Origin: a virus
Virus record (IMG/VR): IMGVR_UViG_3300037961_005106
Span: 1-64,000 of that record
Length of the DNA stretch: 64,000 nt
Direction: 5' to 3' (one strand)
Every line of letters starts with the position of its first letter. The first letter of the stretch is position 1. Below the pieces are notes generated by a model. The model had not been told where the DNA came from. It searched no databases and saw nothing but the letters and a program-made list of their open reading frames with translations. Made by a program: the position numbers and the translations under genes. Below are positions 24,653 to 39,873 of this stretch, one piece after another.

Positions 24653-24698
24653 TGAATGAAATGATAAAGGGTTGACGCTAGGGCTTACGCAAAGCTGC

Positions 24699-25634
24699 CT
24701 AGTTTTTTTTATTGAAGAAAGGTTTAAGTTGAGTTAATGCTGGAGCAGGGAAAGGAATGAATTCGTTTTCAAGCATAGCTTCAAACAAAGACCAAGCATC
24801 GTGTTGGCTATACCTTGTATCTTTGCGATACAGCTTCCACTTATTAAGAGGAGCCATTTGGCCAGACGTTGTGTAGAGAACTTGGAACTGACCAAGCTCT
24901 TGTCCTTCCCCTGGAGGAGCATACGACCAAGCTGTTGCCTTCTGACTCATCGTGCCACGTGCTGAATCAAATAGAGCAGCCCGTTTAGAAAGGAGTTCTC
25001 GCCAACGATTGATCCAAGTCAAGTGTTTACATGTAGGCTCATAGCCAGGGATTTCGGCTTGGATTTCTTTTAGGTGTAACTTTTGTTGCAAGAAAGAACC
25101 ACAAGAACATTGAGGAGAATGATCTGGTTCAGTGGCAACTTCATCTGAATCATCAATACTTAAGGGAGGATTTGGATATAAGACACCATCAGGTGCAACC
25201 AAATAGCCAAAAGAATAATCAGGATTTTCTAAGAAAGCTTTCATGCCTTCTTCGTTTTGAATGTGATCAAGTTTATCTCCCCAACGTTGTTGCATAATTG
25301 ATTGAGGTAAACGATATGATCCTTGAAATTGATAGTTCCAACCTTTGAATAAGACATAACAGTTGTTACGCCAAAAGCTTGGCCCCTTTAAATCAGGCCC
25401 AAGATATGAAAAGAAGTCAGGACAACGTGAACGAAAATCTTTGAAAGAATCTTTTACTTTTTGTTTGTCATATTCTTTTTCGGTTCCATCATTGTAAACA
25501 ACAACCAAGTTGTTATCAACCATACAAATAGCAGAGATATCTGTATCATCAAAGTCATCAAAGGCTCTTCTAATATTTGAACGGGAATAAATAATAGATT
25601 GACCAGAATTAAGTTGTTCAATAGTTGAAGTCAT
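24699..25634 (-). CDS. SWIM zinc-finger protein
   Basis: CSCGSF...x(n)...CKHL SWIM signature. Confidence 0.7.
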   Translation of the reverse strand: MTSTIEQLNSGQSIIYSRSNIRRAFDDFDDTDISAICMVDNNLVVVYNDGTEKEYDKQKVKDSFKDFRSRCPDFFSYLGPDLKGPSFWRNNCYVLFKGWNYQFQGSYRLPQSIMQQRWGDKLDHIQNEEGMKAFLENPDYSFGYLVAPDGVLYPNPPLSIDDSDEVATEPDHSPQCSCGSFLQQKLHLKEIQAEIPGYEPTCKHLTWINRWRELLSKRAALFDSARGTMSQKATAWSYAPPGEGQELGQFQVLYTTSGQMAPLNKWKLYRKDTRYSQHDAWSLFEAMLENEFIPFPAPALTQLKPFFNKKN

Positions 25635-25665
25635 GGTTAGAATGAGTTAAATTAAATTAGATTAA

Positions 25666-25872
25666 ATGGCACTGAGCTTTGAATCAAGTCCAGAAGAAGA
25701 GTTCTGGAGTGTACGAATGAATCGTCACATTGAAGACTGTAGCTCAGTCAGTGAATTAAAGCAGATCGCTACGTTGCTTGTCAAGCTTGCAGCGACCCGC
25801 CAGTGCGTGATCAAAGGTCTAGTAAAAGAATCACTAGACCGTATGGAATCAGAATTTATTATCGGCTCCTAG
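25666..25872 (+). CDS. nblA: NblA-like phycobilisome degradation adaptor
   Basis: 68 aa; S-x-E-E-E-F...I.....ELK.....L........IKGLVK helix-loop-helix pattern of NblA. Confidence 0.6.
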   Translation: MALSFESSPEEEFWSVRMNRHIEDCSSVSELKQIATLLVKLAATRQCVIKGLVKESLDRMESEFIIGS

Positions 25873-26838
25873 ATCATCACGAGATGAACTAAGAACTTGA
25901 ACTTCTGTTACTCCAGCACGAGATTCAGGAAGAATGTTTACTCCTTCCTTAATCCCATACGCCCCATTAAGACGACTAGCATCTTGCTTGGCATGTTGGT
26001 TAATGTAGTCATAGTACATCTCTTGGAATTTCCAAGTCGATTCACGATCTTCATCAGGAATGGAAAGCTTATCGAGAGAAGATAAAGCTACTTCCTGATT
26101 CTGATATTCAGGAATGTCAAATGATTCAACAGCGCAAATTTCAACGTTGTTGTTACCACGCATATCACCAGCAAGAGTGGGGCAAAAGACAGTTGTTGCG
26201 TGAAACTTCTCATTGAAATTTAAAGGCACTTCAGAATCCATGGCACGAGAAAGACACTTTGACATTTCTTTCTCATACAGTTTGATCTTCTCAGATAAAT
26301 CTGTACCATTAAGACCTTTAAGCGTTAAGACCATAGGGATCTTATGCGCACGTTTATTTTCTTTGGTAAGAATGTAAACAAGGTATTTAGTACGTACTGC
26401 ATACTTACGCTTGTACATTTCATTCTTACTATTAGCAAGATCAGAAGCAGTTTTATCTGCATCCCAAAGTTCTTTAACGTCAGGATCGTTAAAGATTCCA
26501 ATTATCTGACGCATGCCAGATGTTTCTTCGATCATTAATGGTGAACGAAGGAGGATTTGGAGTCGTGGTGATTGGAGGTTGAGGCCGAGTTCTTTGCTGG
26601 TGTTTGGTGGCATGCCAAATGCATGCTCGTAGTCAAAGATAATGGAGCCTTTGTCAAAGTCACTGGGATCTGCAGTCCAACTGCAAGAGTCAAGATCTGT
26701 GTTGCGAATAAACCAACCACGTTTCTTTGATTTGTTGAGAGGTTGAATAGTAATTAAATTTTGGTATCCAGAAACAAATTTTTTGTCGCTGAATAAAGCA
26801 AACGAATCAATGTTGCGTTTAGCAAGAGCGCTTGTCAT
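25849..26838 (-). CDS. Conserved cyanobacterial/cyanophage protein (DUF5895-like; possibly recombination)
   Basis: PRLQIL.RSPL...RTKYLVYIL...N...H.IP..LTLKG; adjacent to SSB. Confidence 0.5.
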   Translation of the reverse strand: MTSALAKRNIDSFALFSDKKFVSGYQNLITIQPLNKSKKRGWFIRNTDLDSCSWTADPSDFDKGSIIFDYEHAFGMPPNTSKELGLNLQSPRLQILLRSPLMIEETSGMRQIIGIFNDPDVKELWDADKTASDLANSKNEMYKRKYAVRTKYLVYILTKENKRAHKIPMVLTLKGLNGTDLSEKIKLYEKEMSKCLSRAMDSEVPLNFNEKFHATTVFCPTLAGDMRGNNNVEICAVESFDIPEYQNQEVALSSLDKLSIPDEDRESTWKFQEMYYDYINQHAKQDASRLNGAYGIKEGVNILPESRAGVTEVQVLSSSRDDLGADNKF

Positions 26839-26914
26839 AGTGAATTCGTAGTGTGTTCGGTGTGTGAAATCTGGGCCTTACCTCTATAGAGTGCCCAGAT
26901 GTGTGTAGCTTAGC

Positions 26915-27778
26915 TCAGAATGGTTCCTTTGAGTCGTTGATGTTTAGATTGTTGTCGGGCAAAGGAGGTAAACCATTTGTGTTTGCTCCCCATGGCTCAG
27001 CAATTGCCATTGGTTCTTTAGGTTCCGCAATAGCTGCCTGATGAGGTGACTCAGGTGTTGTTGATTCTGCAGTGCGTCCACCCCATAAAGATTTAGGTGC
27101 AGAGTCATTAGCAATTGTTGTTGTTGATTTGATTGCGTTAGAAGTAACATCAGTCTTAGGTGCCAATGTCATTTGTTTCATTTGAATCTTTGTGTTGTAC
27201 CGTTGTTGTTTTGAATTGTGATCAAACCAACTATCAGTTACAAGCTGCCCCTGGATGGTAATACCAGTTCCTTTCTTGCAAAGATTAACCAAAAGCTCTG
27301 CCGGTTTAAAAGCATCATCAACTTTATTCATTGATGTGAAGTTAAACAAGTCAGCAGCCATTTTGCCCTTGGTAACAGTCATACTCATATTGGCAATCAT
27401 CAAACCACTGTCAGTTGTTTTGAATGTCATTGGATTAGTAACATCAGGATCTTTTGCAATCCGGCCTGTCAAGATAACTGAGTTATAAATAGGGAATGAA
27501 TCATCAACAACAGCAGGGTTACCACTGTGTAAAGAATGCTCACGTGCTTCTAAATCATGATGCAGTTTTGCACCATAGATAAACAAACAAGTTCCTGCTT
27601 TGATTAGTGAACGCCAGCGAGCCTGGTCCTGATAGATGTGATAGTACACCTCTGTTGGTGCTTTATTTGCACTAACAGGAGGCAGTTGTACTTTTACTTT
27701 CAAAGCAGTACGAGAGGAATCCAAATAGATTTCTTTCGGTTCTTCAGTCGCTTGAGCACAAACAAAAACTTGATTCAT
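26915..27778 (-). CDS. ssb: Single-stranded DNA-binding protein, apparently two tandem OB folds
   Basis: MNQVFV..A...P and NSVILTGRIAKDP...KKG..I.I.GQL..DSW; C-terminal EPF tail. Confidence 0.8.
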   Translation of the reverse strand: MNQVFVCAQATEEPKEIYLDSSRTALKVKVQLPPVSANKAPTEVYYHIYQDQARWRSLIKAGTCLFIYGAKLHHDLEAREHSLHSGNPAVVDDSFPIYNSVILTGRIAKDPDVTNPMTFKTTDSGLMIANMSMTVTKGKMAADLFNFTSMNKVDDAFKPAELLVNLCKKGTGITIQGQLVTDSWFDHNSKQQRYNTKIQMKQMTLAPKTDVTSNAIKSTTTIANDSAPKSLWGGRTAESTTPESPHQAAIAEPKEPMAIAEPWGANTNGLPPLPDNNLNINDSKEPF

Positions 27779-27833
27779 GATTTTAAAGTTGGATCAGAAA
27801 AGCTAGGACTTACATCGTAAGAATGCCTAGTAA

Positions 27834-29696
27834 TCAGTGTGTATCGTACCAGGTATAACCAGTCTTGGCATCACCTTCAATCTTGCATTGAAAGTTAAAT
27901 GCTTCACCAGCAGCAGGAAAAGCATTCAAAGCAAGACGAATAATTTCATTTTCAATGCCTGGTCTACAGCTCAATTGAATTTCGTCATGAATCATTCCGT
28001 GTTGATGCCAGTCTTGTCCATAGACTAAGCCAGCACTACTGAGATTCTTATGGATATTAATGACAACTTGTTTCATTAAAATTGCACCACAAGATTGCAA
28101 CAAAACATTTAAAGCTTTGAAATCAGAGCGACAATAAAGAGGACGCTTATCTAAACCAAGAAGATAACCACGACCAATTAAATTCTCAGCAAGTTTATTC
28201 TTTAGTTTTTGTAATGCTGGCACACCATTCATGAACGATTGGATAGCAGCTTTGCCTAATTGTTTAAGGGCATCAGGATCCTTTTCATTAGGATCCACGA
28301 TGCTACCTGCCTTAAGAAATCCAGCTCCATAAAGAACTGCATAAAGAAGTCGCTTGCTAATATCTCTAGTTTCAACACCAAACTTTTCTTGGTTATAAGT
28401 ATGGATGTCTACTGAATCATCAGTAACCATTTGTCCATACTCTCCATCATCCCAGAATGCTAAATACCCAGCAAGACAACGTAATTCCAAGGCTTTAGCA
28501 TCAGAACCAATAAGGATCCAATCGTCAGGAGCATGAAATAATGAACGGCATTCCTTTCCATATGGACTATAAGCTGCGGGAATTTGAGCAGTATTTGGGT
28601 TGCGGTGGCTACACCGGCCAGTAATACAACCATTAGTAACCACGTCGCCGTGAATATAACCATCGGGAGAGACAAGCTTGATCCAAGCGTTGTTGCCATC
28701 TTTAATTTGACCTAACCGTTTCTTAAGTAACATGTATTCTGCCAGAGGTTTAGCTTCTGGATATGGAAGTTTTTCTAAGACATCGTCATTTAATACAGGG
28801 TTACCCTTCTCAGTTCTTGTCTCAGGAATCCAACCGTATTTATTCTTTAAACGCTGAACAATTTGTTGACGTGATCCTGGATTAAACTTCTCTATTCTTT
28901 TCTTACAAAAGGGTACGTCTTTTACATAGCCACGGGAAGCATTGTTTACCTTGGGAGTAAACCATTCCTCATGTTCAATTGGTGGAAAAAGATTAACTAA
29001 TTCTGTTTCGAGTTTTGTTTTGAGATGCTCAAGTTCATCCACAAAAGCAAGAGCTGCATCAATATCAAAAGGAAAACCTGATCGAATTTGTCTCTCAATA
29101 CATGATGCAAAGGTGTGTTCAAGTTCGAGACAAGTTGTTGCGATTGTTTGCTTTTGGATGTGCTCAAGTAGTTTTGTTGTGACATTGACGTCTTGAATAC
29201 AGTAGGACAACATCTCTTCAGAAAAAGCCGAGAAATCTTTAAAGTCGATCTTGTAGTCGGATAACCTGTAACCCCAAGCTTTGAGTGAAGCTGACCCTTT
29301 GAGTCCACCAGGCACACGTGTGTATGAATTTGTATCTGACTCAAGTAACTTTTCTTTCGGCCAAATGAGTCGTGTGCAGATGAGTGTGTCGATGACATGC
29401 TGTGTGTTTAGTTTGAAGTTGGGAGCTAGCTTTTGTAAGACAGGAATGTCGTAGAAAATTATATTGTGTCCGATAAGAGCATCGGCGCTATTGAGAGAAT
29501 CAATAGCATCATTAATAGTATCAGGCCCGTAAGTAAAAGTTTGTTGTCGTGTGACATCGTAGATAACGATGCAGAAGATTTTAGTAACATCATCATAGAG
29601 TCCGTCAGTTTCTATATCGAATACATACCATTTATCATTTAAAGAATTTGGCTTCAGGCTGAACTGATAACTCTTTTGAAGCGAGGTTACTGTCAT
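27834..29696 (-). CDS. polA: DNA polymerase family A, T7-like with 3'-5' exonuclease (Tyr at the E. coli 762-equivalent position)
   Basis: FDIETDG, GHNIIFYD, YCIQDV; motif A DAKALELR, motif B RDISKRLLYAVLYG, motif C HDEIQ. Confidence 0.95.
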   Translation of the reverse strand: MTVTSLQKSYQFSLKPNSLNDKWYVFDIETDGLYDDVTKIFCIVIYDVTRQQTFTYGPDTINDAIDSLNSADALIGHNIIFYDIPVLQKLAPNFKLNTQHVIDTLICTRLIWPKEKLLESDTNSYTRVPGGLKGSASLKAWGYRLSDYKIDFKDFSAFSEEMLSYCIQDVNVTTKLLEHIQKQTIATTCLELEHTFASCIERQIRSGFPFDIDAALAFVDELEHLKTKLETELVNLFPPIEHEEWFTPKVNNASRGYVKDVPFCKKRIEKFNPGSRQQIVQRLKNKYGWIPETRTEKGNPVLNDDVLEKLPYPEAKPLAEYMLLKKRLGQIKDGNNAWIKLVSPDGYIHGDVVTNGCITGRCSHRNPNTAQIPAAYSPYGKECRSLFHAPDDWILIGSDAKALELRCLAGYLAFWDDGEYGQMVTDDSVDIHTYNQEKFGVETRDISKRLLYAVLYGAGFLKAGSIVDPNEKDPDALKQLGKAAIQSFMNGVPALQKLKNKLAENLIGRGYLLGLDKRPLYCRSDFKALNVLLQSCGAILMKQVVINIHKNLSSAGLVYGQDWHQHGMIHDEIQLSCRPGIENEIIRLALNAFPAAGEAFNFQCKIEGDAKTGYTWYDTH

Positions 29697-29919
29697 TTTT
29701 GTTAATCCAATTGAGTATATTCATAGCACCTGTCTTGGTTGGAGAACAAAATGCTTTTGAAATTTGAGAGTCTTTTGTTATTGGAATTAACTCAAAGACT
29801 TTGGCATCAACGTTGGGAGTGATTGCATGAGGTATCCCTTTCAAATATGTAGTAATTAAGTACGACACAAAAAGAATTGCAGGACACATAAATAATACGC
29901 ATCCTGCAAAAAAGTGCAA
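29635..29919 (-). CDS. Hypothetical protein with N-terminal TM segment
   Basis: ORF track. Confidence 0.5.
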   Translation of the reverse strand: MHFFAGCVLFMCPAILFVSYLITTYLKGIPHAITPNVDAKVFELIPITKDSQISKAFCSPTKTGAMNILNWINKNDSNLASKELSVQPEAKFFK

Positions 29920-29923
29920 CTAA

Positions 29924-30694
29924 TTATTTTGAATATCCTGTCCAGGTTCCCTCACGTTTGCGTGCATTTAATGCAGCTTGCGCAGCAGATCCCTTGCGTT
30001 GAACACCATGAACAAGTAGAGCAAAGGGTTTATCACCAAAGCAATGACTATCATCATGGTCAATCTCTAAACCAAGATCAGCAGCTTCTTGTTCTGTATA
30101 AACTACATGAGCGATGCGCTTAAAGACATGCCCGTATCTGGAAAGGAGAGGATCGAGATTACCCCCAACTGAAGCAGTGAGAAACAGGTTAGAAGGAATG
30201 TCATCTTGATTGTTGAGCCAGTAGCTAAGTTGTTTTGTGTAGGCATAGAACTTAATTTCAGGGTGTTGACGAGCAACTTCGAGCCAAGCTTTGAAATAGA
30301 TTTCAGACCAGAAATCACCTGACTCATGGATGCGACACAAGTTATATTTAACTTTGTTTTTATTATGCTGCCATATGCCATATGCAATTGTATCTTCTAA
30401 TGCACCTTGAGGATTTTGTACGCCTTCGCCATAAAGAGTTTCTTTAATGGCATCCCAATTGTGCCAACGTGCATCGCGGCATGGTTTGCTACGTGCTTCA
30501 GACATTGCAGCAAAACATCTGTACTCCTCACCAGTAGCATGAGCTGATTGTGGCAAGTCACGAATCGTACCTGTAGTTCTGTCTGCAAAAGTTTTGCAAT
30601 GACCAGCATTAGGACAGGTGTAACCCGCTGGTAAAGAAAAGATTAGACGTTTACCAAGCTTGGCATTGCCTGTAGAGAACTTTAGGATGTGCAT
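29924..30694 (-). CDS. Gene product 88-family (radical-SAM-like) protein; start at 30694
   Basis: GNAKL...FSLPAGYTCP.A..C...CFA, RIHESGDF, FYAYTK. The ORF-track extension runs through a motif-A hairpin. Confidence 0.75.
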   Translation of the reverse strand: MHILKFSTGNAKLGKRLIFSLPAGYTCPNAGHCKTFADRTTGTIRDLPQSAHATGEEYRCFAAMSEARSKPCRDARWHNWDAIKETLYGEGVQNPQGALEDTIAYGIWQHNKNKVKYNLCRIHESGDFWSEIYFKAWLEVARQHPEIKFYAYTKQLSYWLNNQDDIPSNLFLTASVGGNLDPLLSRYGHVFKRIAHVVYTEQEAADLGLEIDHDDSHCFGDKPFALLVHGVQRKGSAAQAALNARKREGTWTGYSK

Positions 30695-30758
30695 GAGATG
30701 AAATGAAGTGGATTGAATGGGACTTACAACACACATTACTGTGTGTATGCCCATGAGT

Positions 30759-31184
30759 TTAACTACAATACTCTGTATTTTGTTCTCTTTGGTATTGAGT
30801 CATAATTCTTTTTGCTTTCCAAACAGCAGCATCATTAATAAATTTATCAAGGGTGCAACCAATTAAAGCAGCAGCTTCTCTCATATCTTTTAACTCTTGT
30901 GCTTCAAACTTTACAGTAACTTTAGTCTTTATTTCTTTAGCTTTTACCCAATCAATATTCTCTTTTACCCAATCATCAACTTCTTTTTTAACGTAATAGT
31001 TTGAGCCTTTGGAACCAGGGTTAACAGGCGAAGGAAAGATACCTTCTTTTGTCTTACGAATCAAAGTGAATCGTGACATTAGTGTCAAGTCAAGTACTTG
31101 TTGCGTTGTGTAAAAATTCGATCGCTCTTTCCCCCTGGGTATGGTTGAAGAAACAGCAGCGTGAAATTGATTTTCTGGAAGCAT
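30759..31184 (-). CDS. AlpA/excisionase-type HTH protein with C-terminal RHH-like segment
   Basis: TQQVLDLTLMSRFTLIRKTKEGIFPSP...EVDDW; then VTVKF...REAAA..G.TLDKFI.DAA. Confidence 0.7.
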   Translation of the reverse strand: MLPENQFHAAVSSTIPRGKERSNFYTTQQVLDLTLMSRFTLIRKTKEGIFPSPVNPGSKGSNYYVKKEVDDWVKENIDWVKAKEIKTKVTVKFEAQELKDMREAAALIGCTLDKFINDAAVWKAKRIMTQYQREQNTEYCS

Positions 31185-31212
31185 GATGGATTGATTTGGT
31201 CTAGGATAAAGG

Positions 31213-31265
31213 AACGTTCACCTCAGTGCGAGGCGCAATTCACTAGGCAAGGAACGGGGCCTAGG
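31213..31265 (+). ncRNA. Glutamine-II riboswitch (Downstream-peptide RNA)
   Basis: P1 CGUUC/GAACG, P2 CCUC/GAGG, CGCA junction, GGAACGGGG, pseudoknot CUAGG(31243-47)/CCUAG(31260-64); upstream of a YRG peptide. Confidence 0.85.
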
Positions 31266-31283
31266 CTTTAGCGGAGAACTCTC

Positions 31284-31427
31284 ATGCAACTCACCTACCG
31301 TGGGGTTAAGTACCAGGCACAGACTGGTTTGATGGCTCATCTTCTCAAAAAACATGAGGAAGAGTTACGTGCAAAAAAAGAATTAGCACGTGACAAAGAG
31401 TCCATGAAAGCAACCTCAGTCTTTTAA
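31284..31427 (+). CDS. DUF4278 'YRG' peptide (IF17/GifB-related), 47 aa
   Basis: MQLTYRGVKYQAQTGLMAHLLKKHEEELRAKKELARDKESMKATSVF*; GGAG SD. Not in the ORF track. Confidence 0.8.
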   Translation: MQLTYRGVKYQAQTGLMAHLLKKHEEELRAKKELARDKESMKATSVF

Positions 31428-31621
31428 GACCAAGGCCAGCTTAACTCAACGTCAGCTTGCCAGACATCTGGATCAATCTGACGTTCACTAACATATTGAT
31501 TGAATAGGCGTTTCATTTCTTCTAATGAGATGCCTATTTCTTTTGCTTTAACGGCTACATTAGTTTGCCCACGGTAGATAAGATCAAGAGCATCTTCCAA
31601 AGAGGTTACAGTCTTGTGCAT
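31424..31621 (-). CDS. Small HTH-like hypothetical protein
   Basis: NVAVKAKEIGISLEEMK. Confidence 0.55.
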   Translation of the reverse strand: MHKTVTSLEDALDLIYRGQTNVAVKAKEIGISLEEMKRLFNQYVSERQIDPDVWQADVELSWPWS

Positions 31622-32078
31622 CAGGAGTCATGTACTCAGGAATATCAAAATCACAACAGTCATTCTCTTGGTGATAATGCTTACAGTTTAAACATATAAT
31701 TGCTTTCTTGTTTAAATATTTTCCAGCATCTGCTTCAGGAAGTTCAATCGTTGTAATGCGATAATCACAAGCCTGGCATTGCTTTTGTCGTCGTCGATAA
31801 CCACTACCATTTAATCTGCTTTCAATAACTTTTAGAAAACGCCTCCCACAATTGGGACACTTTTCCATGATGGATGCTCTTGCTGCTTTGAGTTGATCTG
31901 CTGTTGGCATTACAAAAGGTTTACGAGAAAAAATACCTGAGCATTGTCGTGAACAAAAAATTTTAAGACGCCCACGTTTTATGTTTGCTTTATGCAACCA
32001 CTTTGAACGTTTAAAAAGTTTTCCACAACACTCACATTTCAGTTGAAGCTCACTTTTATTTAACAGAGTGTGTTCCAC
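31584..32078 (-). CDS. Multi-zinc-ribbon protein with NrdR-like N-domain
   Basis: CECCG..F...FCSRQC; CPNCG....VIESR....RRRQKQCQACDYRITTIE; CLNC.H...C...C. Confidence 0.7.
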   Translation of the reverse strand: MEHTLLNKSELQLKCECCGKLFKRSKWLHKANIKRGRLKIFCSRQCSGIFSRKPFVMPTADQLKAARASIMEKCPNCGRRFLKVIESRLNGSGYRRRQKQCQACDYRITTIELPEADAGKYLNKKAIICLNCKHYHQENDCCDFDIPEYMTPDAQDCNLFGRCS

Positions 32079-32734
32079 ATTGCCTCCGAAATAATTGGAA
32101 ACTGCTGCATAAAAATTGTTTTACATTTTTGAGCAATCTCTTTGTGTTCTTCTTGCGTACCGTTGGCGGTGCGAAGATCAATGTAATGAAGCCAAGAACG
32201 AAGAGTACCATTCATGTACATTTTTGTAGGGGCATTAGGCAAGACAGAACGAGCACATTCTTTTGCAATGCCGTCACTTAACATCTCTTGGTATAGATGT
32301 TCAGCATCTTCAAAGAGAACGCCAATGCGACGGTAATACTCAGAGACTTTAGGTTTACCTAAACGTTCTTCTAAATCATCAAATGATTTTTGACGATTCT
32401 TCAGATCTTGTGAGCGTAAATGTGGAATCAATGGACGACCAATTTCATTTGTATTGGCATAGCGTTGTGAAAATTCCTGGAATGAAAATGATCTGTGCCT
32501 TAATATTTGAGGACTAATTGTCCGTGTAGTGTGTACTTCTAAGCACATGTTGGCCATTTCAAAAGGAGACCAATGGCCATGTTTAATTAAATAACGTAAG
32601 AGCTTTGGACCTGTGTCCATGTTGTCTTCGTTTCTTGGAGCTGAGACTCTTGCAGTACGTACGATCATACGCTCTGCTTCATCAGTACGCCAAACTAATG
32701 AGACGGTGTGAGGTGAGAACATAGCGGATGTCAA
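32060..32734 (-). CDS. thyX: FAD-dependent thymidylate synthase
   Basis: HGHWSPFE, RHRSFSFQEFSQRY, KECARSVLP, LRSWLHYIDLR. Confidence 0.95.
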   Translation of the reverse strand: MTSAMFSPHTVSLVWRTDEAERMIVRTARVSAPRNEDNMDTGPKLLRYLIKHGHWSPFEMANMCLEVHTTRTISPQILRHRSFSFQEFSQRYANTNEIGRPLIPHLRSQDLKNRQKSFDDLEERLGKPKVSEYYRRIGVLFEDAEHLYQEMLSDGIAKECARSVLPNAPTKMYMNGTLRSWLHYIDLRTANGTQEEHKEIAQKCKTIFMQQFPIISEAMWNTLC

Positions 32735-33018
32735 TTGATTTTCTCTCGTTCATTCTTAACAACTGCGTCGATTGCTGCCTGATTAGGAGCTAAAGCAATA
32801 CGCATTGTCATATGCCATTCAGAAGAGGATGAACCATCCCATTGAATGAGGAGCCAAGGCATAAGAGTGCCCCTTGCATTTGATTTGTATTGAACTTCGT
32901 GGACAGTACCTAGCTTTGTTCTTGGAGGAAGAGCGCCTTTAATGTTGCTCATCATTGATCTAGGTTTGTGGATGACTCGGTCACCAACATTGAATTGAAC
33001 TTGTTTGCGTTTAGTCAT
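32731..33018 (-). CDS. Small SH3/KOW-like hypothetical protein
   Basis: FNVGDRV...GTV......IQWDG. Confidence 0.6.
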   Translation of the reverse strand: MTKRKQVQFNVGDRVIHKPRSMMSNIKGALPPRTKLGTVHEVQYKSNARGTLMPWLLIQWDGSSSSEWHMTMRIALAPNQAAIDAVVKNEREKIN

Positions 33019-33034
33019 TGAGAATTAGTATGCA

Positions 33035-33066
33035 GAGAAATACCCGGCTGCAGCAACAACCGGGTA
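33035..33066 (-). terminator. Hairpin, possible terminator downstream of the tRNA
   Basis: UACCCGG...CCGGGUA followed by UUUCUCU. Confidence 0.45.
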
Positions 33067-33174
33067 AGTAGTACACGCCCCTACCGAAGGATAGATCAGG
33101 TGCTAAGGCTGATCTGGACGTATCTTAGTGAGTGCAATTAGGTGGGTCAAGTTGAAAAGTATTAAGTTAATTGT

Positions 33175-33262
33175 TGGTAGGAGTGGCGAGACTTGAACTC
33201 GCACGGCCATAGTGGCCCACAGATTTTAAGTCTGATGTGTCTACCGATTCCACCACACTCCC
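33175..33262 (-). tRNA. tRNA-Leu (anticodon UAA), encoded CCA
   Basis: GGGAGTG acceptor, TGGTGGAATCGGTAGACAC D-arm, CAGAC-TTAAAA-TCTG anticodon arm, long variable arm, GTTCAAG T-loop, ACCA end. Confidence 0.95.
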
Positions 33263-33316
33263 AGGCTAGGACTTACACCAAAACTTTGTATTGGATGCCT
33301 AGACGGTTACCTTTGT

Positions 33317-36300
33317 TTACTCATCGAGTTGCCAGTCAAGATCTAATTCTTCTAAGAATTGAATCTTGTCATAGTCAGTACCATCAATAGGTGGTGGTAG
33401 ATCATCATGTTCTAGTGAAAAGCATGCACTACAAATCCCTGGGCCATACTCTGCAGGATGTGCAAGCTCTGGTGGATTGTAACAAGGAGCAAGTGTTTGC
33501 ACCATGTTATCAATTTGGGCAGTAGCAATCCAGTGAGTAGTTCCATTAGAGTCTGTTTGATCTAAATCAATGTCGTAAACAAGAAGAATAAGTTTCATTT
33601 GCGCACCGTAAGATGTTTAACCATGGTGTAACCCATAGATTTGATGTCAGTAGCTTTAGAAGCAAAGATTCCATTAGGCCCGTACTCCTCAAAGAGTTCG
33701 GGCCATGTGGTTAAGATCTTTTGCTGGTTACGTAAATCAGATCTACGGTAGAGAGCAGCAAGTCCTTTGACAAAACCGCCACCATAGGTTTCCATTCGAT
33801 CAAGAGTTTGATCAAGGTGTTGAGTAGTAATCATGAATTGAATTGAATGAACAGTGAGAGTCTAGGACTTACATGTTGGGGATACAATGCCTAGTAATAA
33901 GTATTTACTTAAAGGTATATAAGTATTCTTGGTGGCCCTCCGGGGGTGCAGGGGGCTTTATTGTTCCTTAATGTTTGCCAAGTATCTAGCATATGCTCCC
34001 CTCTTTGGGGCACGATACTTTCTATTCTGTGGCTGTGGCTTCTTAGTTACATAGACACGCTGTCCGTTTCGCATGTAGTAAAGACCTCCGCGTTTACCTT
34101 CGATGAGCTCAACGTTAGTAGGCAATGCGCTTACATGATTCAACGTCATTCGTTGTCAGACCACATGTCAGGTTTAGAGTTGTGCTCCGGCAGATCAGGA
34201 GTCCTGAAGTCTGGGAGCTCAGTCGATACTACATTACGGAAGCTGATTCCGGTACCGGGGAGCCCTAAAGATCCCCGGATGCCGTGTTCGCTAAGGTTTG
34301 CTGTGACTTGGAAGGGACCAACCTTGATTGTCTTGGAGTAGGACTTAACACCACGTTCAGTGATGTTGATGCCTGCAATAGTTTTGTCAAAGTTGATCAG
34401 TGATTTCTTTCGTGCCATGGTTTGTGTGTTGGAGTGAAGTGACAAAGAAGTAACTAGCTGTATCTCTATGATGTTTGATATGTACGTCAGTCTTGGAGCA
34501 TCTGATTCTTAACTCAGTGCCATCCGGTAAGATAACAAAGAGTGTTTGCTCAGGTAGTGCATCAATTGTTGGCATAGAATACAATGAATGATAAGGTTTG
34601 CTTATGTCCTGGATGTTATTTCCAGTACATTTGACGGATGTAATACCAAAGTACTTCTTCAGTTAAGCTGCACCCTGGGTTCTCCGCCAATAACTTAACT
34701 GCTTCGTCAAGTTCTTTTTGTGAACCATTGGCATAAGTAACGGACCATGCAACATCTTCCATGCGTTCCCATAAAGCTGTAGCTTCTGGGGTTAACTTGG
34801 AATGACGAGGTAGATCACGTCCTTTTGCTTCATAATGTTCACCATAAATGTCTTTAACTGTGTCCATAAATTAAGTTAAGTTGACATGAAAAAGCCTGGG
34901 ACTTACGCATGATAGCTGCCCAGAAGTGAGTTAGAGTCTGTTGTTAGTATCTAGCAATAGTGAGGCCGCTCGGTGGGATAGTGTGTTGCATACCCTGAGC
35001 CGAGGGTGGCCTGAGTTGCGGAAAGATTTCGACTGTCACAGATGCTTCCTTGGTTGAATAGGTCGTAATGTTTCGTGAGTTCGAGGCAACGTCTGATGCA
35101 TTGCTTTTTGGAGAAGATGCAGTGGGTGGCGATGGCTTGACCAACTTCGTACCACCATCCTCCTTCTTCTGGCCCACCGTACGCTTGGTAGACTTCGTGG
35201 ATTTTGATTGTCTTTGGGGCTTCACCACTAAAGCTTTCTGCCCAGTTGTATTGGTCAATCCAATATCTTGTTGCGCCTGTACGGGGGTAACGTTTGAGGT
35301 AGGCGTTTGCGAGGGCCATAGAAGAAGTGATAGAAGAGCAAGAATGTGATCGATGATGTGGTATTCAGTTGTGTTAGAACTTCCCATCAGGATGCTGTGA
35401 GATAAAGTTTTCGTAGTCAGGATCAATGCCTTCGGGAGGATCCATTTCCTCTCGCATTGCTTGCTCCTGTTGATAGGCGATGTCAGCAAGGATGTCAATC
35501 TCATCCTGCTTAATTTGTTTAGTGAGGCGGTCGAGTTCAGACATGGTTGACATGATGTTAAATTGAATGGGTATTAAAGACTGGGACTTACGTTGTTGAG
35601 GTACTCCAGGTATTGGCCTGATGTAATTCGACATACTGCCCAGTGCATTTTACTGAGGTGGACTACATGCATCAGCGTAGAGAAAACTACCGCTCCAGTC
35701 AGCCTTATGTAACGCAGCCGCATAAGAACTGTCGTTTAATAAGTTGTAACGTACTTGACGTATTGGAGAACAATAGGAGGCAGGCTTGTAAACATTCCCT
35801 TTGCTATCAATGAAGCACCATGTTTCAGTAGTAGGACCACCCAACATGTTCTTCCATGAGATTGTTAGCTCAAGTCTGATGTACTTTCTACCTTGGTATT
35901 GACGGAATGTAAGAGATTTCTCACGTTCCTTAACACCTTTTCGATAGTACTTACTGATGGCAGACTCAGTAAGGTTGTTGATGCGTTCTTGAAGGATTGA
36001 TGTTGTCATGATTAACAGGCAGGTCCATAGTATTTCTCCAGCCCCCTGGGACAGACCGGTGACTCATAGTTGAGTGCATAAGTGCCTGCACCTATCAGTG
36101 CTAGGCATGTAATGACACCAACAATGATGGGCGCTGTGAGAGGGGGACGGGAGTATGAATCGAGTGTGACGTACTTGTTCTTGCCAAGACGTACTGTGTG
36201 AATTGCCATGTCAAGTCTGCGTATTGAGTTTGAAGGTGTCAAGATGTTTAGTAATGAAACCAGAATCCCAGATAGTAGGTAAGCATTGCTCACTTACTGT

Positions 36301-36474
36301 TTCTTGGATGCCATCGACAATGGTCATGACACGACACCAATTAGTGTTCTTGTCAGGATGATGTGCGATAACGCAGGCAGTATAGTCATCTCCTTCTGAG
36401 AAGACCATCCACTTAAGTTCCTGGGCTTGTTTGATTGCCCATTCCCTAAGCTCACTAGTCGTTGGTGAAGTCAT
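33317..36474 (-). CDS. Cluster of small early genes (33317-33598, 33595-33834, 33958-34149, 34616-34867, 34951-35319, ~35374-35555, 36012-36210, 36211-36474)
   Basis: Tightly packed co-directional ORFs; no recognisable function. Confidence 0.6.
34146..34418 (-). CDS. DUF4236-like protein
   Basis: SKTIKVGPFQVTANLSEHGIRGSLGLPGTGISFR. Confidence 0.6.
   Translation of the reverse strand: MARKKSLINFDKTIAGINITERGVKSYSKTIKVGPFQVTANLSEHGIRGSLGLPGTGISFRNVVSTELPDFRTPDLPEHNSKPDMWSDNE
35650..36009 (-). CDS. Conserved cyanophage early protein
   Basis: GRKYI...CFIDSKGNVYKPASY..P...RYNL...ADWSGSFLY. Confidence 0.6.
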   Translation of the reverse strand: MTTSILQERINNLTESAISKYYRKGVKEREKSLTFRQYQGRKYIRLELTISWKNMLGGPTTETWCFIDSKGNVYKPASYCSPIRQVRYNLLNDSSYAAALHKADWSGSFLYADACSPPQ

Positions 36475-36650
36475 TTGGAATTGAATGAGGTGTACCCTGG
36501 GACTTATACACTGATGTGATGCCCAGGGTGTAGTTATAGTTACAATTTAGTTGTAAAGAGATGCATACAATTACTACAGTTGAATTAATAGAATGGCAGT
36601 AGCAACAGTTGTATGCATGCTCGGGATGAGTGCGTTAGGTGCTTGGTTAT

Positions 36651-37828
36651 TTACACCGCGTACTCGTATGTGAACTGACGCTCTAGTTGATGCCAAGCAT
36701 TACGACAAGCGTCATAGATCTCCTTGCGATTCTTATACACAATCACTGCTCCTTCCCAGGTAAGCTGAGTTAGCAGAATGATTAATGCAATCGCATGGAT
36801 AATTAACCACCGTAGTGGTTTATGTAGATGTCTACGGTAGAACTTACCTACCTGGTAGCCAGCATTGTATGTGTGACGAACGAGGTTCGCCATGAAGTTG
36901 AGGCAGAACAGAATAGCTGTGATGCTAAACAGTTCGCCGCCGATAGCGTAAAGACGTACGGCAGCAGTGATGAAGCTGTCAACATGAGACAGCAGATGAA
37001 GAGTAGTCATGAGTTTGAATTGAATAAAGGATTGTGCAGGAGTGAGTCCTGCAGAAAACCCCCGAAGGGGCTTAGTGCAGAAGTCATTTAGACATAAGAC
37101 TTTCTAGGTATTCACGTTCAAGGCAAATACCGTAGTTGTAGTAGTCTTTCATCTCTTCCCATAGATCTTTAACCCTGGTAGGCATCTCCATCAATGTACG
37201 AACATCGATGTCAATCCATTCATAGTTACCATCGAAGTTTGGCGTTGCAACGATGCCCCACTTTTGGAAGTGAAGCTGTGTTGATTCACCACCGTACCAA
37301 GCGATACGATAGATACGTTTGTCAGCATCGACAGGACGATCAGGTTGATAGATAAGAAGATCACGTTTGATAGACGGCCAGGTGGATGGGTCGTCAGTGT
37401 ATTCAGTCATTGGTTTGACTTAAGTTGAGTTGAACACAGGATGTAGAGTCCTGCAGAGAAGGGCCGAAGCCCCTCAGTGCAGAAGTCAGGTTACTTCCTT
37501 CTACCTTGATAGATTTTGAAAGCAAGGAAAGCACATGCAGCACCAACTGGTAGGCCGACTAAAGCAGCCATACCAATAATGCCAGCACTTGTTCCATAAG
37601 ATACAAGATCATCGGTAGATTTAGAGAGTTTGGTCATTGACCTAGATAGCGAATGTGCATACAAGCTTTAGCATCACCTACCCACGATGTTAACGTGACT
37701 ATGCGATGGTAATCAGGTTGAGCTCTGCAAGTCTCTATTGCACGTTGGTTCAGATGCTTCTGACCAGCAACAGATAGAAGACCTCCTAAACCTATGCCTA
37801 GAATTACAGCAAGGTACGACTTAGCCAT
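36651..37828 (-). CDS. Early genes 36651-37010 (membrane), 37084-37410, 37491-37637 (48-aa membrane), 37634-37828 (membrane)
   Basis: ORF track plus manual translation; three carry hydrophobic helices. Confidence 0.6.
37035..37488 (-). repeat. Structured RNA motif B, two copies (37035-37086, 37435-37488)
   Basis: UGACUUCUGCACU-[7-bp stem, cUUCGg]-UCUGCAGGACUC..UCCUG; inner stem covaries. Confidence 0.7.
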
Positions 37829-37846
37829 AGTTACAAATAAGAATGA

Positions 37847-37873
37847 AGAAAAAAGGGGACTTTACAGCCCCCT
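37847..37873 (-). terminator. Intrinsic terminator after the first four early genes
   Basis: AGGGGGC-UGUAAA-GUCCCCU followed by UUUUU on the - strand. Confidence 0.7.
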
Positions 37874-37880
37874 GGTTTGG

Positions 37881-38246
37881 TCAGGAAACAATAGATGCTT
37901 CAACAACTACTGCTTCAACATCTGGAGCACCATGGTGGCGTGTGTGTGCTTGTTGATACTTCACTTCACGCTCATCACGTGAGCGCTTATAGGTATCACC
38001 CTGTTCTGCTGAGCAGGTATGCACGTTGCCACGGGCACTGACATAGATGTAACAGTTATGTTCTTGTGACCACTGACCTTGATGATAAGCAAGGGCTTCA
38101 TCGTTGTACTCATAACCGAACTTGACGGTATGAGTTTTCTTGAAGCCATCCTCATCTGTCCAACAGGCTGAGAGCCTGGTGAGACGATCAGCTTCTTCTT
38201 CGATCATCTGGATGGAAGGAACCATCAGTCGCAATGCGTTAAGCAT
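37881..38246 (-). CDS. Early hypothetical protein (start MLNALR...)
   Basis: ATG just downstream of the motif-C RNA. Confidence 0.6.
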   Translation of the reverse strand: MLNALRLMVPSIQMIEEEADRLTRLSACWTDEDGFKKTHTVKFGYEYNDEALAYHQGQWSQEHNCYIYVSARGNVHTCSAEQGDTYKRSRDEREVKYQQAHTRHHGAPDVEAVVVEASIVS

Positions 38247-38260
38247 GAGTTGCGTTGAGT

Positions 38261-38338
38261 TGTGTGGTGCCCATCTCCACTGAGGGCAATAACTGGACCA
38301 GGGTTTGCACCTGGTCACCCGCTTTAACGGATCAGCTA
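38261..38338 (-). ncRNA. Structured RNA motif C, copy 3 (tRNA-elbow-like junction + pseudoknot)
   Basis: UAGCUG A UCCG UUAAAG CGGG U GACCAGG UGCAAAC CCUGGUC CAGUUA U UGCCC UCA GUGG AGAU GGGCA CCAC. Confidence 0.8.
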
Positions 38339-38565
38339 AGCAGCTTGATTGCATACTTGGCAATCTCTGCTGCATGTTCCCTGGTTAGTACCTGGGAGTG
38401 TCCGTCCTCCATCAGATTTCTAATCTGTTGGAAGACAATCTCGCCAGACTCTTCACGAGTAGGAACGTGAGTTTCCTCACGAAGGCGAGTGGGTAACCCC
38501 ATCTCTTGTGCTGCCATCGCATCAGGCGATGTAGCGTAAAGAGCGGAGTTGGTGTAGTTGGTCAC
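38332..38565 (-). CDS. Early hypothetical protein (GTG start)
   Basis: CAGGAG SD then GTG ACC AAC. Confidence 0.6.
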   Translation of the reverse strand: MTNYTNSALYATSPDAMAAQEMGLPTRLREETHVPTREESGEIVFQQIRNLMEDGHSQVLTREHAAEIAKYAIKLLS

Positions 38566-38580
38566 AGGTATTCTCCTGTG

Positions 38581-38659
38581 TGTGCAGTGCCTATCTCTGC
38601 TGGAGGCAATAACTGTCAGGGGCATTGAACCCCTGATGCCAGCCTTTACTGGTCAGCTA
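38581..38659 (-). ncRNA. Structured RNA motif C, copy 2
   Basis: UAGCUG A CCAG UAAAGG CUGG CA UCAGGGG UUCAAUG CCCCUGA CAGUUA U UGCCU CCA GCAG AGAU AGGCA CUGC. Confidence 0.8.
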
Positions 38660-38837
38660 AGGCAGCTAACTCTGCACGAGTTGGCAGTCCGGCTTCAATG
38701 TCAATTAAATCCTGTTCGCATTCAATGACAGTGTCACCCCCGTAGACGTACGGAGGCTGACCATCTTTCTCAGCCATCTCATTGAGAGTGGTTGGAAAGG
38801 TAAGGTCATAACCGGGAACCTTGTTGTTGGTGCTCAC
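38646..38837 (-). CDS. Early hypothetical acidic protein (GTG start)
   Basis: CAGGAG SD then GTG AGC ACC. Confidence 0.6.
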   Translation of the reverse strand: MSTNNKVPGYDLTFPTTLNEMAEKDGQPPYVYGGDTVIECEQDLIDIEAGLPTRAELAALADQ

Positions 38838-38850
38838 AGGTAACTCCTGC

Positions 38851-38928
38851 GTGTGCGGTACCCATCTCCGCTGTGGGTAAGAAGTGCCAGGGGGATTGCA
38901 CCCCTGGTCCCGCTTTAACGGATCACTT
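38851..38928 (-). ncRNA. Structured RNA motif C, copy 1
   Basis: AAGUG A UCCG UUAAAG CGGG A CCAGGGG UGCAAUC CCCCUGG CACUU CU UACCC ACA GCGG AGAU GGGUA CCGC. Confidence 0.8.
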
Positions 38929-39090
38929 GTTAAGCAGTTGCTGGTACCAACGGCGAGCCATAGCAACACTGCAACGTGCTTGTTGATCTCTTCCTTGCTG
39001 TCCTTTACGGACAAGCTTGGATACAAGTGCTTGATCTCCTTTGATCTCAAAGAAGTAAACAGCTTGTTTAGTCTCAAGTGCGTAAGACAT
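38923..39090 (-). CDS. First early gene, 55 aa (MSYALETKQAVYFFE...)
   Basis: Manual translation; its TGA stop lies within the motif-C copy. Confidence 0.6.
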   Translation of the reverse strand: MSYALETKQAVYFFEIKGDQALVSKLVRKGQQGRDQQARCSVAMARRWYQQLLNK

Positions 39091-39228
39091 GATGTTGAAG
39101 TGAATGGAACGTTGCTACGTTTAACGTCCAGCTTGACGGTTGTTGATCGCTACAATCTTTCTTGGACTTCAGCGCTAGAGAGCGCGAAATAACGAGTAAA
39201 AGGCGGCAAACAACAGATGGAAAGACTG

Positions 39229-39268
39229 TTTTCCACAGGATTGTGGATTAATTACTGAGTTTTCCACA
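39229..39268. promoter_or_regulatory. DnaA-box cluster
   Basis: TTTTCCACA at 39229-37 and 39260-68; 1-mismatch inverted box TGTGGATTA at 39242-50. Confidence 0.5.
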
Positions 39269-39633
39269 TGACAATTGAATTATTGTCTGTGAAATTCACA
39301 CTGTCCTCCTGACTTCCCACCCAATTCATTCCTTTCATATATACAAAGGCCCACCCTTATTTTTTTTCTATACGCATTCGCAGTCGGACAACGTGTGTGA
39401 GGAGTGTTAGGTAATTATTAACCCATTTCGGGTAAAAAGTTGGCGTTTTAAACAAAAAATAGGTTGCACAAAAAGTCGTCGTTTAGGTATCCCCCTGGTA
39501 ATAATTAGCCCAAACTTTTGTTATTAAAAACTATTGTTTTAATTTACTAATATAACTTTTCATATAAAATTTTGTAGCCCAAAACGTCGTCAAAACTGAC
39601 GTTTACCCCAAACAATTACCCCAAAGTTGCGGG

Positions 39634-39873
39634 TTACTTCCGTGCTAAATCTTTATATGCTTTAGCTGCTTTAGCTGCTTCTCCCATTTTTCCGGTATCA
39701 CCAATTTCACGGGCTAATTCACGCTTAGCACCCTGGGCAAAAGTCTGTACTTCTAGGGGTGTAGCCCCTTTATCAGCCATATCCTGCGCTGCAGTAGCAA
39801 TACCTTCCAGTGCAACACCGCGTTGTAGGTTTTGTTCTTTTGTAAGCGGGGCTTCTAACATGTTATCTGCCAC
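39634..39873 (-). CDS. Hypothetical protein
   Basis: 79-aa Ala-rich ORF. Confidence 0.55.
   Translation of the reverse strand: MADNMLEAPLTKEQNLQRGVALEGIATAAQDMADKGATPLEVQTFAQGAKRELAREIGDTGKMGEAAKAAKAYKDLARK

Follow-up and report, generated by a model that had tools for sequence, protein, structure and literature searches.

Dunn and Studier reportedly described how the early polycistronic message of phage T7, transcribed by the host polymerase, carries a hairpin for processing by RNase III at almost every gene junction. The structured ends stabilize the pieces left by cutting. Punctuation by tRNA signals is found in the mitochondrial tRNA punctuation model and in the cleavage of operon mRNAs by RNase P. 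In Gram-positive bacteria and their phages, 5′ mRNA stabilizers, such as the SP82 and aprE leaders, depend on structures or bound ribosomes near the 5′ end to block 5′-to-3′ decay by RNase J. The early promoter/stem-loop cassettes (PeSLs) of T4-type phages place a sigma-70 early promoter beside a stem-loop (PMC2839356, PMC4122927). Among beny- and cucumoviruses and other RNA viruses, the coremin element (xrRNA-C) stalls both Xrn1 and scanning ribosomes (PMC6546385, PMC10520033). The subject here is the leftward early arm of a lake cyanophage, virus record IMGVR_UViG_3300037961_005106, whose gene junctions hold four families of RNA motifs, designated K, C, B and A. The stretch analyzed, referred to as the window, is the first 64 kb of this complete 79,234-bp record with direct terminal repeats, and is syntenic with Synechococcus phage S-EIVl (KJ410740).

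Intercistronic RNA Modules of the Early Arm

K, C, B and A are intercistronic RNA modules of the sense strand. Compensatory changes were observed in all four families and every copy lies on the transcribed strand; for example, all 61 matches of a covariance model of motif A (R1, built from 23 copies) in 24 related loci had this orientation. The modules start at the upstream stop codon or a few bases after it and end about 30 nt before the next start. Among 236 unique copies of A, the median position was 8 nt 3′ of the stop and 30 nt (interquartile range 26–33) 5′ of the start. The leaders that follow the modules are G-poor and mostly devoid of a Shine-Dalgarno (SD) sequence, the spacer between A and the next start having 7.9% G against a background of 22%, and an SD-like core in 23 of 215 cases. 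An earlier, sequence-only reading of the window had placed K, three C motifs, an intrinsic terminator, two B motifs and nine A motifs along this arm, and minus-strand reading, repeat finding and covariance models recovered each of them in place (Table 1). Most junctions are too tight for a separate promoter, and promoter-like matches were rarer than in shuffled sequence (21 found, 34 expected); in the scan of the arm, no such match fell at any A, B, C or K junction.

Motif K reads CGUC-AA-GCUG-GACG-UUAAAC-G-UAGC in the window and comprises helix P1 (CGUC/GACG), helix P2 (GCUG/UAGC) and the spacer UUAAAC. The block is kept ahead of the first early gene in distant relatives, where the compensatory variants CGCC/GGCG and GCUG/CAGC were found, together with further P1 variants (AGAC/GUCU and GGAC/GUCC), and relatives carry 3–6 copies per genome at internal junctions. 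Pairing of at least 4 bp between loop and tail was present in 75 of 75 unique copies, against 50% when the tails were swapped among copies. These copies were picked on P1 and the spacer alone, so the test is not circular. It overturned an initial view of K as a conserved sequence box without structure, the grounds for which had been an unremarkable single-sequence fold (z −0.72) and the fact that the hairpin as first drawn is not kept in one relative (G004).

Motif A follows the pattern CURGG-CA-[variable hairpin]-GUAAGN-CCYAG, and R1 detected exactly nine copies in the window, spanning 24675–36529 on the minus strand; the rest of the 79,234-bp genome added none. In an alignment of 56 distinct copies from relatives, 90% of cells were paired, against 78% in shuffles, and double changes numbered 61 against 17. 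The third pair of the lower stem is G-C, A-U or U-A and the upper stem covaries, while the remaining lower-stem bases and the CA/GUAAGN internal loop are nearly invariant. The succession of A and a tRNA seen at A5 recurs in relatives. Several other identities were considered for A and rejected. A promoter is disfavored by eye, as GTAAGT/TAAGTC agrees with two of the six bases of TATAAT, the key A2 and T6 not among them, and covarying stems of variable length do not fit one either. A k-turn, an 11-nt tetraloop receptor and a small ribozyme were likewise dismissed by eye, on a misfit of strand order or size.

Motif C, scored with the covariance model R2, folds into a three-way junction formed by P0 (6 bp), P1 (4 bp, with a UUAAAG-type loop) and P2 (7 bp, with a T-loop-like UGCAAAC loop), with compensatory changes at 13 of the 17 pairs. 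In 32 of 48 copies, a conserved UGA within the motif doubles as the stop codon of the upstream gene. The upstream stop of C1, a UGA, falls within P0, that of C2 is a UAA located in the P1 loop, and C3 has an identical copy in a relative (L003). Two downstream forms were found. In the first, an H-type pseudoknot (99.5% paired, both helices covarying, with a single base linking them) stands before a covarying hairpin, in which both the SD GG and the GUG or AUG start are paired; in the second, a simple covarying hairpin precedes a leader without an SD. The hairpins downstream of C1 and C2 (38834–38860 and 38563–38590, minus strand) pair CA(C)AGG with CCUGUG, burying the SD GG and the GUG start, and relatives carry the compensatory forms CGG/CCG and, with AUG, UGG/CCA. 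The 7-nt loop of P2, closed by a G-C pair, is UGCAAAC in 25 of the 48 copies, with UGCAAUC and UUCAAUN as further forms; set beside the T-loop consensus UUCRANY, position 2 is mostly G, not U. P0 and P2 stack over ~13 bp, like an acceptor/T minihelix, and this tRNA-like arm suggests a partner that binds tRNA, such as RNase P. With ARAGORN and the Rfam tRNA model, the tRNA-Leu at 33175–33262 was the only match, and C was not recognized.

Motif B is an irregular hairpin of ~16 bp with two internal loops and a GC-rich tip (z about −4 to −5), the tip being followed by UUUUCU. Its short 3′ hairpin, GCAGGN/N′CCUGC, has a covarying sixth pair; in B1, the main hairpin is followed by UUCUCUGCAGG and an alternative 3′ hairpin, GCAGGA/UCCUGU. 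The upstream gene ends at the conserved UGA of B in 21 of 35 copies, B2 among them. B falls below the terminator criterion of the scan; its length suggests RNase III or, given its U-rich 3′ side, attenuation.

The intrinsic terminator following the C block (8-bp stem, GUAA loop, U6; −14.1 kcal/mol, z −3.2) recurs 3′ of the C block in G001 and G003, and not in all relatives. The sequence-only reading, which listed no other, was right to call it an intrinsic terminator; the arm has three terminator-like hairpins, not one. These fit ordinary read-through or attenuation as well as they fit a programme run by RNA only. The two in the A zone hold pieces of B sequence (UUCUCUGCA; UGCAC-U6-GCAGGA...UCCUGC), and the one nearest the DNA polymerase gene, which is like B without its GC-rich tip, is also found in L002 and L004. 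The other lies close to a single sigma-70-like promoter match (TTGACC, 17 nt, TAAGAT; 33122–33150, minus strand) 3′ of the tRNA-Leu. The leader of ~100 nt after this match contains two hairpins, the terminator-like stem with the UUUCUCUGCA tail being the last, and then comes a 95-aa (amino acid) gene; this region (33020–33150, minus strand) could be an independent promoter with an attenuator.

Table 1. RNA modules and terminator-like elements of the leftward arm. Bit scores are those of models R1 (motif A) and R2 (motif C).
Feature	Position	Strand	Score (bits)	Description
K	39114–39138	−		H-type pseudoknot; leader of first early gene
C1	38845–38932	−	81	Three-way junction, pseudoknot, hairpin of SD AGGAG with GUG start; helices covary
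C2	38573–38662	−	66	Architecture of C1; P2 loop UUCAAUG
C3	38253–38342	−	77	Three-way junction and pseudoknot, then leader without SD
Intrinsic terminator	37847–37873	−		Canonical; after last gene of C block
B1	37432–37490	−		~16-bp irregular hairpin, UUCG tip; −24.6 kcal/mol, z −4.1
B2	37030–37088	−		Like B1, inner stem swapped (GCCCC/GGGGU); −23.7 kcal/mol, z −4.7
A1	36494–36529	−	34.7	
A2	35578–35646	−	25	Score over full length; long insert in upper hairpin
A3	34893–34926	−	44.5	
A4	33859–33897	−	31.5	
A5	33263–33305	−	32.9	Ends 3 nt before tRNA-Leu(UAA) at 33175–33262
Terminator-like hairpin	33041–33066	−		UUUCUCUGCA tail, similar to 5′ half of B; inside A zone
A6	30714–30757	−	16.7	Lower stem CAUGGG/CCCAU; full motif signature by eye
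Terminator-like element	29877–29924	−		UGCAC-U6-GCAGGA...UCCUGCAA, U-rich tail; hairpin part 29909–29877; upstream of DNA polymerase gene
A7	27800–27833	−	44.8	Between DNA polymerase and SSB genes
A8	26868–26901	−	41.4	
A9	24675–24705	−	36.3	

Searches beyond the lineage were also performed. With E values of up to 5 allowed, Rfam 15 still had no match to any of the four motifs, and only the tRNA and Glutamine-II models reached their thresholds. With strict filters and few candidates scored, 151 sampled cyanobacterial genomes yielded neither A nor C, which speaks against host mimicry for the genomes searched only. A scan of genome contigs with the A pattern gave more than 120 matches in unrelated bacteria and was discarded as uninformative, because for a pattern of 18 fixed bases with a 31-step gap, an estimated ~500 chance matches are expected in 596 Gb. 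No description of these motifs was found in the searchable literature; they may be among the 10,006 unnamed IMG/VR candidate RNAs of PMC10690425.

Order and Interchange of the Modules in Related Genomes

The lineage has a conserved architecture, with the modules in the order K-C-B-A. This order was followed in seven mapped genomes, whose DNA polymerases are 63–88% identical to that of the window, and in 80 further viral loci found by the A pattern. C, then B, then A were arranged on a single strand in 22 of the 22 loci holding at least two of these three families, and the order was likewise kept in those mapped genomes, five out of seven, that have both C and A. One extra A stands ahead of the C block in 6 of the 22 loci and in G004. 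From one genome to the next, the small genes that separate the motifs are often of different families, and therefore the C-B-A order read from the window survives gene turnover, which is the check that the sequence-only reading had proposed.

The earlier claim that the families never interleave is true of the window genome, whose modules form the string KCCCBBAAAAAAAAA. Its relatives gave the strings KCCCKKAAKAAAA (G002), KCCCCBKAAAKAKKK (G003), KACCCCBBAAAAAKKK (G004) and BBAAAKKAKKK (G005), and in relatives A and K are interleaved and interchangeable. At orthologous junctions, such as those upstream of the 276-aa gene, the SSB gene and the 329-aa gene, A is present in G000–G002 and mostly K in G003–G005 and S-EIVl. 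For example, the A7 junction is occupied by K in place of A in G004, G005 and S-EIVl. S-EIVl, which infects Synechococcus PCCC-A2c, carries C, A and K. Since A and K occupy the same orthologous junctions, they are interchangeable and not separate tiers, and therefore A and K, at least, share one job; the swap amounts to a natural experiment on functional equivalence. Only C and B are position-specific, being confined to the promoter-proximal small genes.

The proposal of a cis-RNA programme is thus divided by these observations: the sense-strand RNA structures at the junctions stand, and the assignment of A and K to separate tiers does not. RNA-level punctuation of the arm is well founded, while the A/K interchange and the extra terminators weaken the idea of a three-tier temporal cascade.

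Comparison with Described Systems

Among the described systems, coremin offers a likeness to K at the level of bases. The two share 10 bases, GACGUUAAAC being common to K and coremin GUCCGAAGACGUUAAACUAC (PMC10520033), and the 4-bp hairpin CGUC/GACG that precedes them in K is within the hp1 range of 3–5 bp. K is identical to the 10-nt coremin spacer GUUAAACUAC over (G)UUAAAC, while the last bases of K differ and pair with the loop. Both elements occur in untranslated or intergenic RNA, and a genome often has several copies. However, K has the loop AAGCUG here, and most relatives have CUNNNNAU, in contrast to the coremin loop YGAD/YGNNAD (PMC6546385, PMC10520033), and the tail of K pairs back to the hp1 loop, generating the H-type pseudoknot, with no conserved hp2. 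Moreover, the host of K is a bacterium without Xrn1. As judged from these sequence features, K is not a member of the coremin family, because its loop fails the consensus and its tail forms a pseudoknot instead of a second hairpin.

The RNase III sites of T7 resemble the modules in being hairpins at nearly every junction of an early message. Compared with the irregular helix of ~20 bp of such a site, B is the nearest of the four families, with its ~16 bp and two internal loops; A, with 8–13 bp, and the three-way junction of C depart from it. T7 also differs in having one family, not four, and in encoding its own polymerase. PeSLs are similar in being short, repeated, composite motifs that are conserved, with small early genes in between that vary among relatives. 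In contrast to PeSLs, A, B, C and K have no promoter consensus, and their conserved trait is covarying RNA pairing. The likeness of C to tRNA signals lies in an acceptor-like helix stacked on an arm of 7 bp, whose loop of 7 nt is T-loop-like, in a small D-arm-like hairpin and in the separation of cistrons; unlike a tRNA, C has neither an anticodon arm nor a 3′ CCA, and is followed by a pseudoknot or a hairpin. Finally, the 5′ stabilizers are single elements at the message 5′ end, not families repeated within an operon, and have no sequence likeness to the modules.

Possible Functions of the Modules

The best-supported reading, which comes near an even chance without reaching it, is that the modules shield and insulate segments of the message; it is favored because of the likeness of K to coremin, the placement of the modules before unstructured leaders without an SD and the A/K interchange. 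The leftward arm would be transcribed by the host RNA polymerase as one or a few long messages, and the compact modules of the four families filling the junctions would act as mRNA punctuation. Whenever such a message was cut, or its 5′ end attacked, the fold before each cistron group would halt exonucleolytic decay. The 5′-to-3′ enzyme of cyanobacteria is RNase J. The fold would also insulate translation of the downstream genes from upstream events, and each segment would therefore have its own stability and yield. A more daring form of this proposal, and quite unlikely, is that K, A and perhaps C are bacterial counterparts of the viral exonuclease-resistant RNAs and stop RNase J at set sites of the operon, that the family order gives promoter-proximal, middle and replication messages lifetimes that differ, and that in a phage lacking its own polymerase and sigma factor the early programme would be timed by RNA folds alone.

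Phages of the S-EIV1-like group are widespread in lakes and seas, and nearly all of their early genes are of no known function. Four uncatalogued folds with covariation support, in conserved order and at nearly every early junction, point to a layer of post-transcriptional control undescribed for cyanophages. If RNase J were indeed blocked, they would represent the first such case in bacteria, analogous to the exonuclease-resistant RNAs that eukaryotic viruses carry, and could provide portable tools to stabilize or insulate genes in synthetic operons.

Several points weigh against shielding and insulation. No RNA fold is known to resist the RNase J of cyanobacteria. K departs from the coremin loop consensus and has no coremin-type second hairpin. 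A has an ordinary single-sequence stability (z −0.72) and no sequence likeness to coremin, and its nearly invariant loop bases would be superfluous for a pure shield, which suggests a specific partner. In addition, the hairpin of SD and start codon 3′ of C looks more like translational control.

Among the alternatives, the one that survives best, although unlikely, is the cascade of the sequence-only reading, in which the families would be different switches (processing, read-through and stability) and their order would set immediate-early, delayed-early and middle classes without a phage polymerase. The C-B-A order, seen in 22 of 22 multi-family contigs and in the five mapped genomes with C and A, agrees with it, as does the presence of C and B solely near the promoter-proximal small genes. 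However, the A/K swap and interleaving in relatives, together with the A copies ahead of the C block in six contigs and in G004, do not, and common descent of a syntenic arm also predicts a conserved order. The canonical terminator 3′ of the C block, after which the next gene has no room for a promoter, is also in its favor, but a terminator between C and B is not universal.

The cascade, like shielding and insulation, is further favored by the failure to find a phage RNA polymerase or sigma factor, which the sequence-only reading had noted for the window and which extends to the complete genome. This gave no match to T7-type RNA polymerase (PF00940) or to sigma-70 region 2 or 4 (PF04542, PF04545), the PF00940 result being a weak negative because the same search was silent in 14 of 14 control genomes. 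Likewise, no polymerase-like Pfam or PHROG match was obtained for any large open reading frame (ORF) of the genome; names were given to those for primase-helicase, DNA polymerase, terminase, portal, tail fibres and methyltransferases, and those of 787, 550, 1093 and 430 aa were left without one. At the level of sequence families, the lack of a phage polymerase stands. The 787-aa product of the first right-arm gene was considered as a hidden polymerase and rejected, having no Pfam or PHROG match and a poor Atlas model with no usable neighbour.

It is quite doubtful that the modules act as operators for trans-acting phage or host proteins, for example a translational repressor or activator on the CA/GUAAGN loop of A, or a tRNA-binding enzyme (RNase P, a tRNA-modifying or a CCA-adding enzyme) on the T-loop-like arm of C. 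The mostly invariant lower-stem and loop bases of A beside covarying pairs would agree with a protein site, but A is located 26–33 nt upstream of the start, where a bound protein would be no obvious block to ribosome entry, and its swap with the unrelated-looking K disfavors a sequence-specific partner. In C, the UGCAAAC or UUCAAUN loop on a G-C pair and the ~13-bp minihelix of P0 and P2 are suggestive, as is the covarying hairpin, 3′ of the pseudoknot form, in which both the SD GG and the start codon are paired; nevertheless, C fails the tRNA models of ARAGORN and Rfam, and no candidate binding protein was identified.

A role in transcription is very unlikely. B and the other elements made of a hairpin and a U tract would be attenuators, and K at the operon head would be a nut/boxA-like read-through site for the host polymerase. 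The three sense-strand terminator-like hairpins and the UUUUCU after the B tip speak for attenuation, but B falls short of the terminator criterion and A and C have no U tract. Similarly, the nearly invariant K found once at the arm head in distant relatives would suit a loading site, but its 3–6 copies at internal junctions in relatives would be unexpected for a single one.

That the motifs are mainly recombination boundaries, repeats that allow swaps of small genes like the PeSLs documented in T4-type phages (PMC2839356, PMC4122927) with the RNA fold secondary, is very improbable: the genes between the motifs do vary among relatives, and the upstream stop built into C and B means that cassettes end in frame, but the compensatory changes reflect selection on RNA pairing and not on DNA identity, the motifs contain no promoter consensus, and their strand orientation and distance to start codons are strict.

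Gene Context

The leftward arm contains small genes of no known function, together with those for thymidylate synthase ThyX, DNA polymerase A, SSB and primase-helicase. Its first gene encodes 79 aa (39634–39873, minus strand) and is kept in seven of the seven mapped genomes. Non-coding DNA of ~500 nt separates this gene from K. Within it, the stretch at 39228–39284, upstream of K, holds two direct copies of GTTTTCCACA, one of them inside the palindrome TCCACAATCCTGTGGA, and these repeats look like an operator near the presumed early promoter. The rightward structural arm starts at 39966 with the 787-aa gene (39966–42329, plus strand), whose product has 225 homologues; all of the 120 listed are unnamed or carry generic names only. 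Many of those listed align over only about half of the protein, suggesting that it is modular.

The small proteins encoded between the C copies (38646–38837 and 38332–38625, minus strand) both contain GLPTR, and may be paralogues arising from tandem duplication of a gene together with its motif. On the plus strand, antisense to the early arm, a unit at 31212–31427 has a 47-aa ORF placed after a complete Glutamine-II (Downstream-peptide) riboswitch, which scored 43.4 bits against a gathering score of 33.

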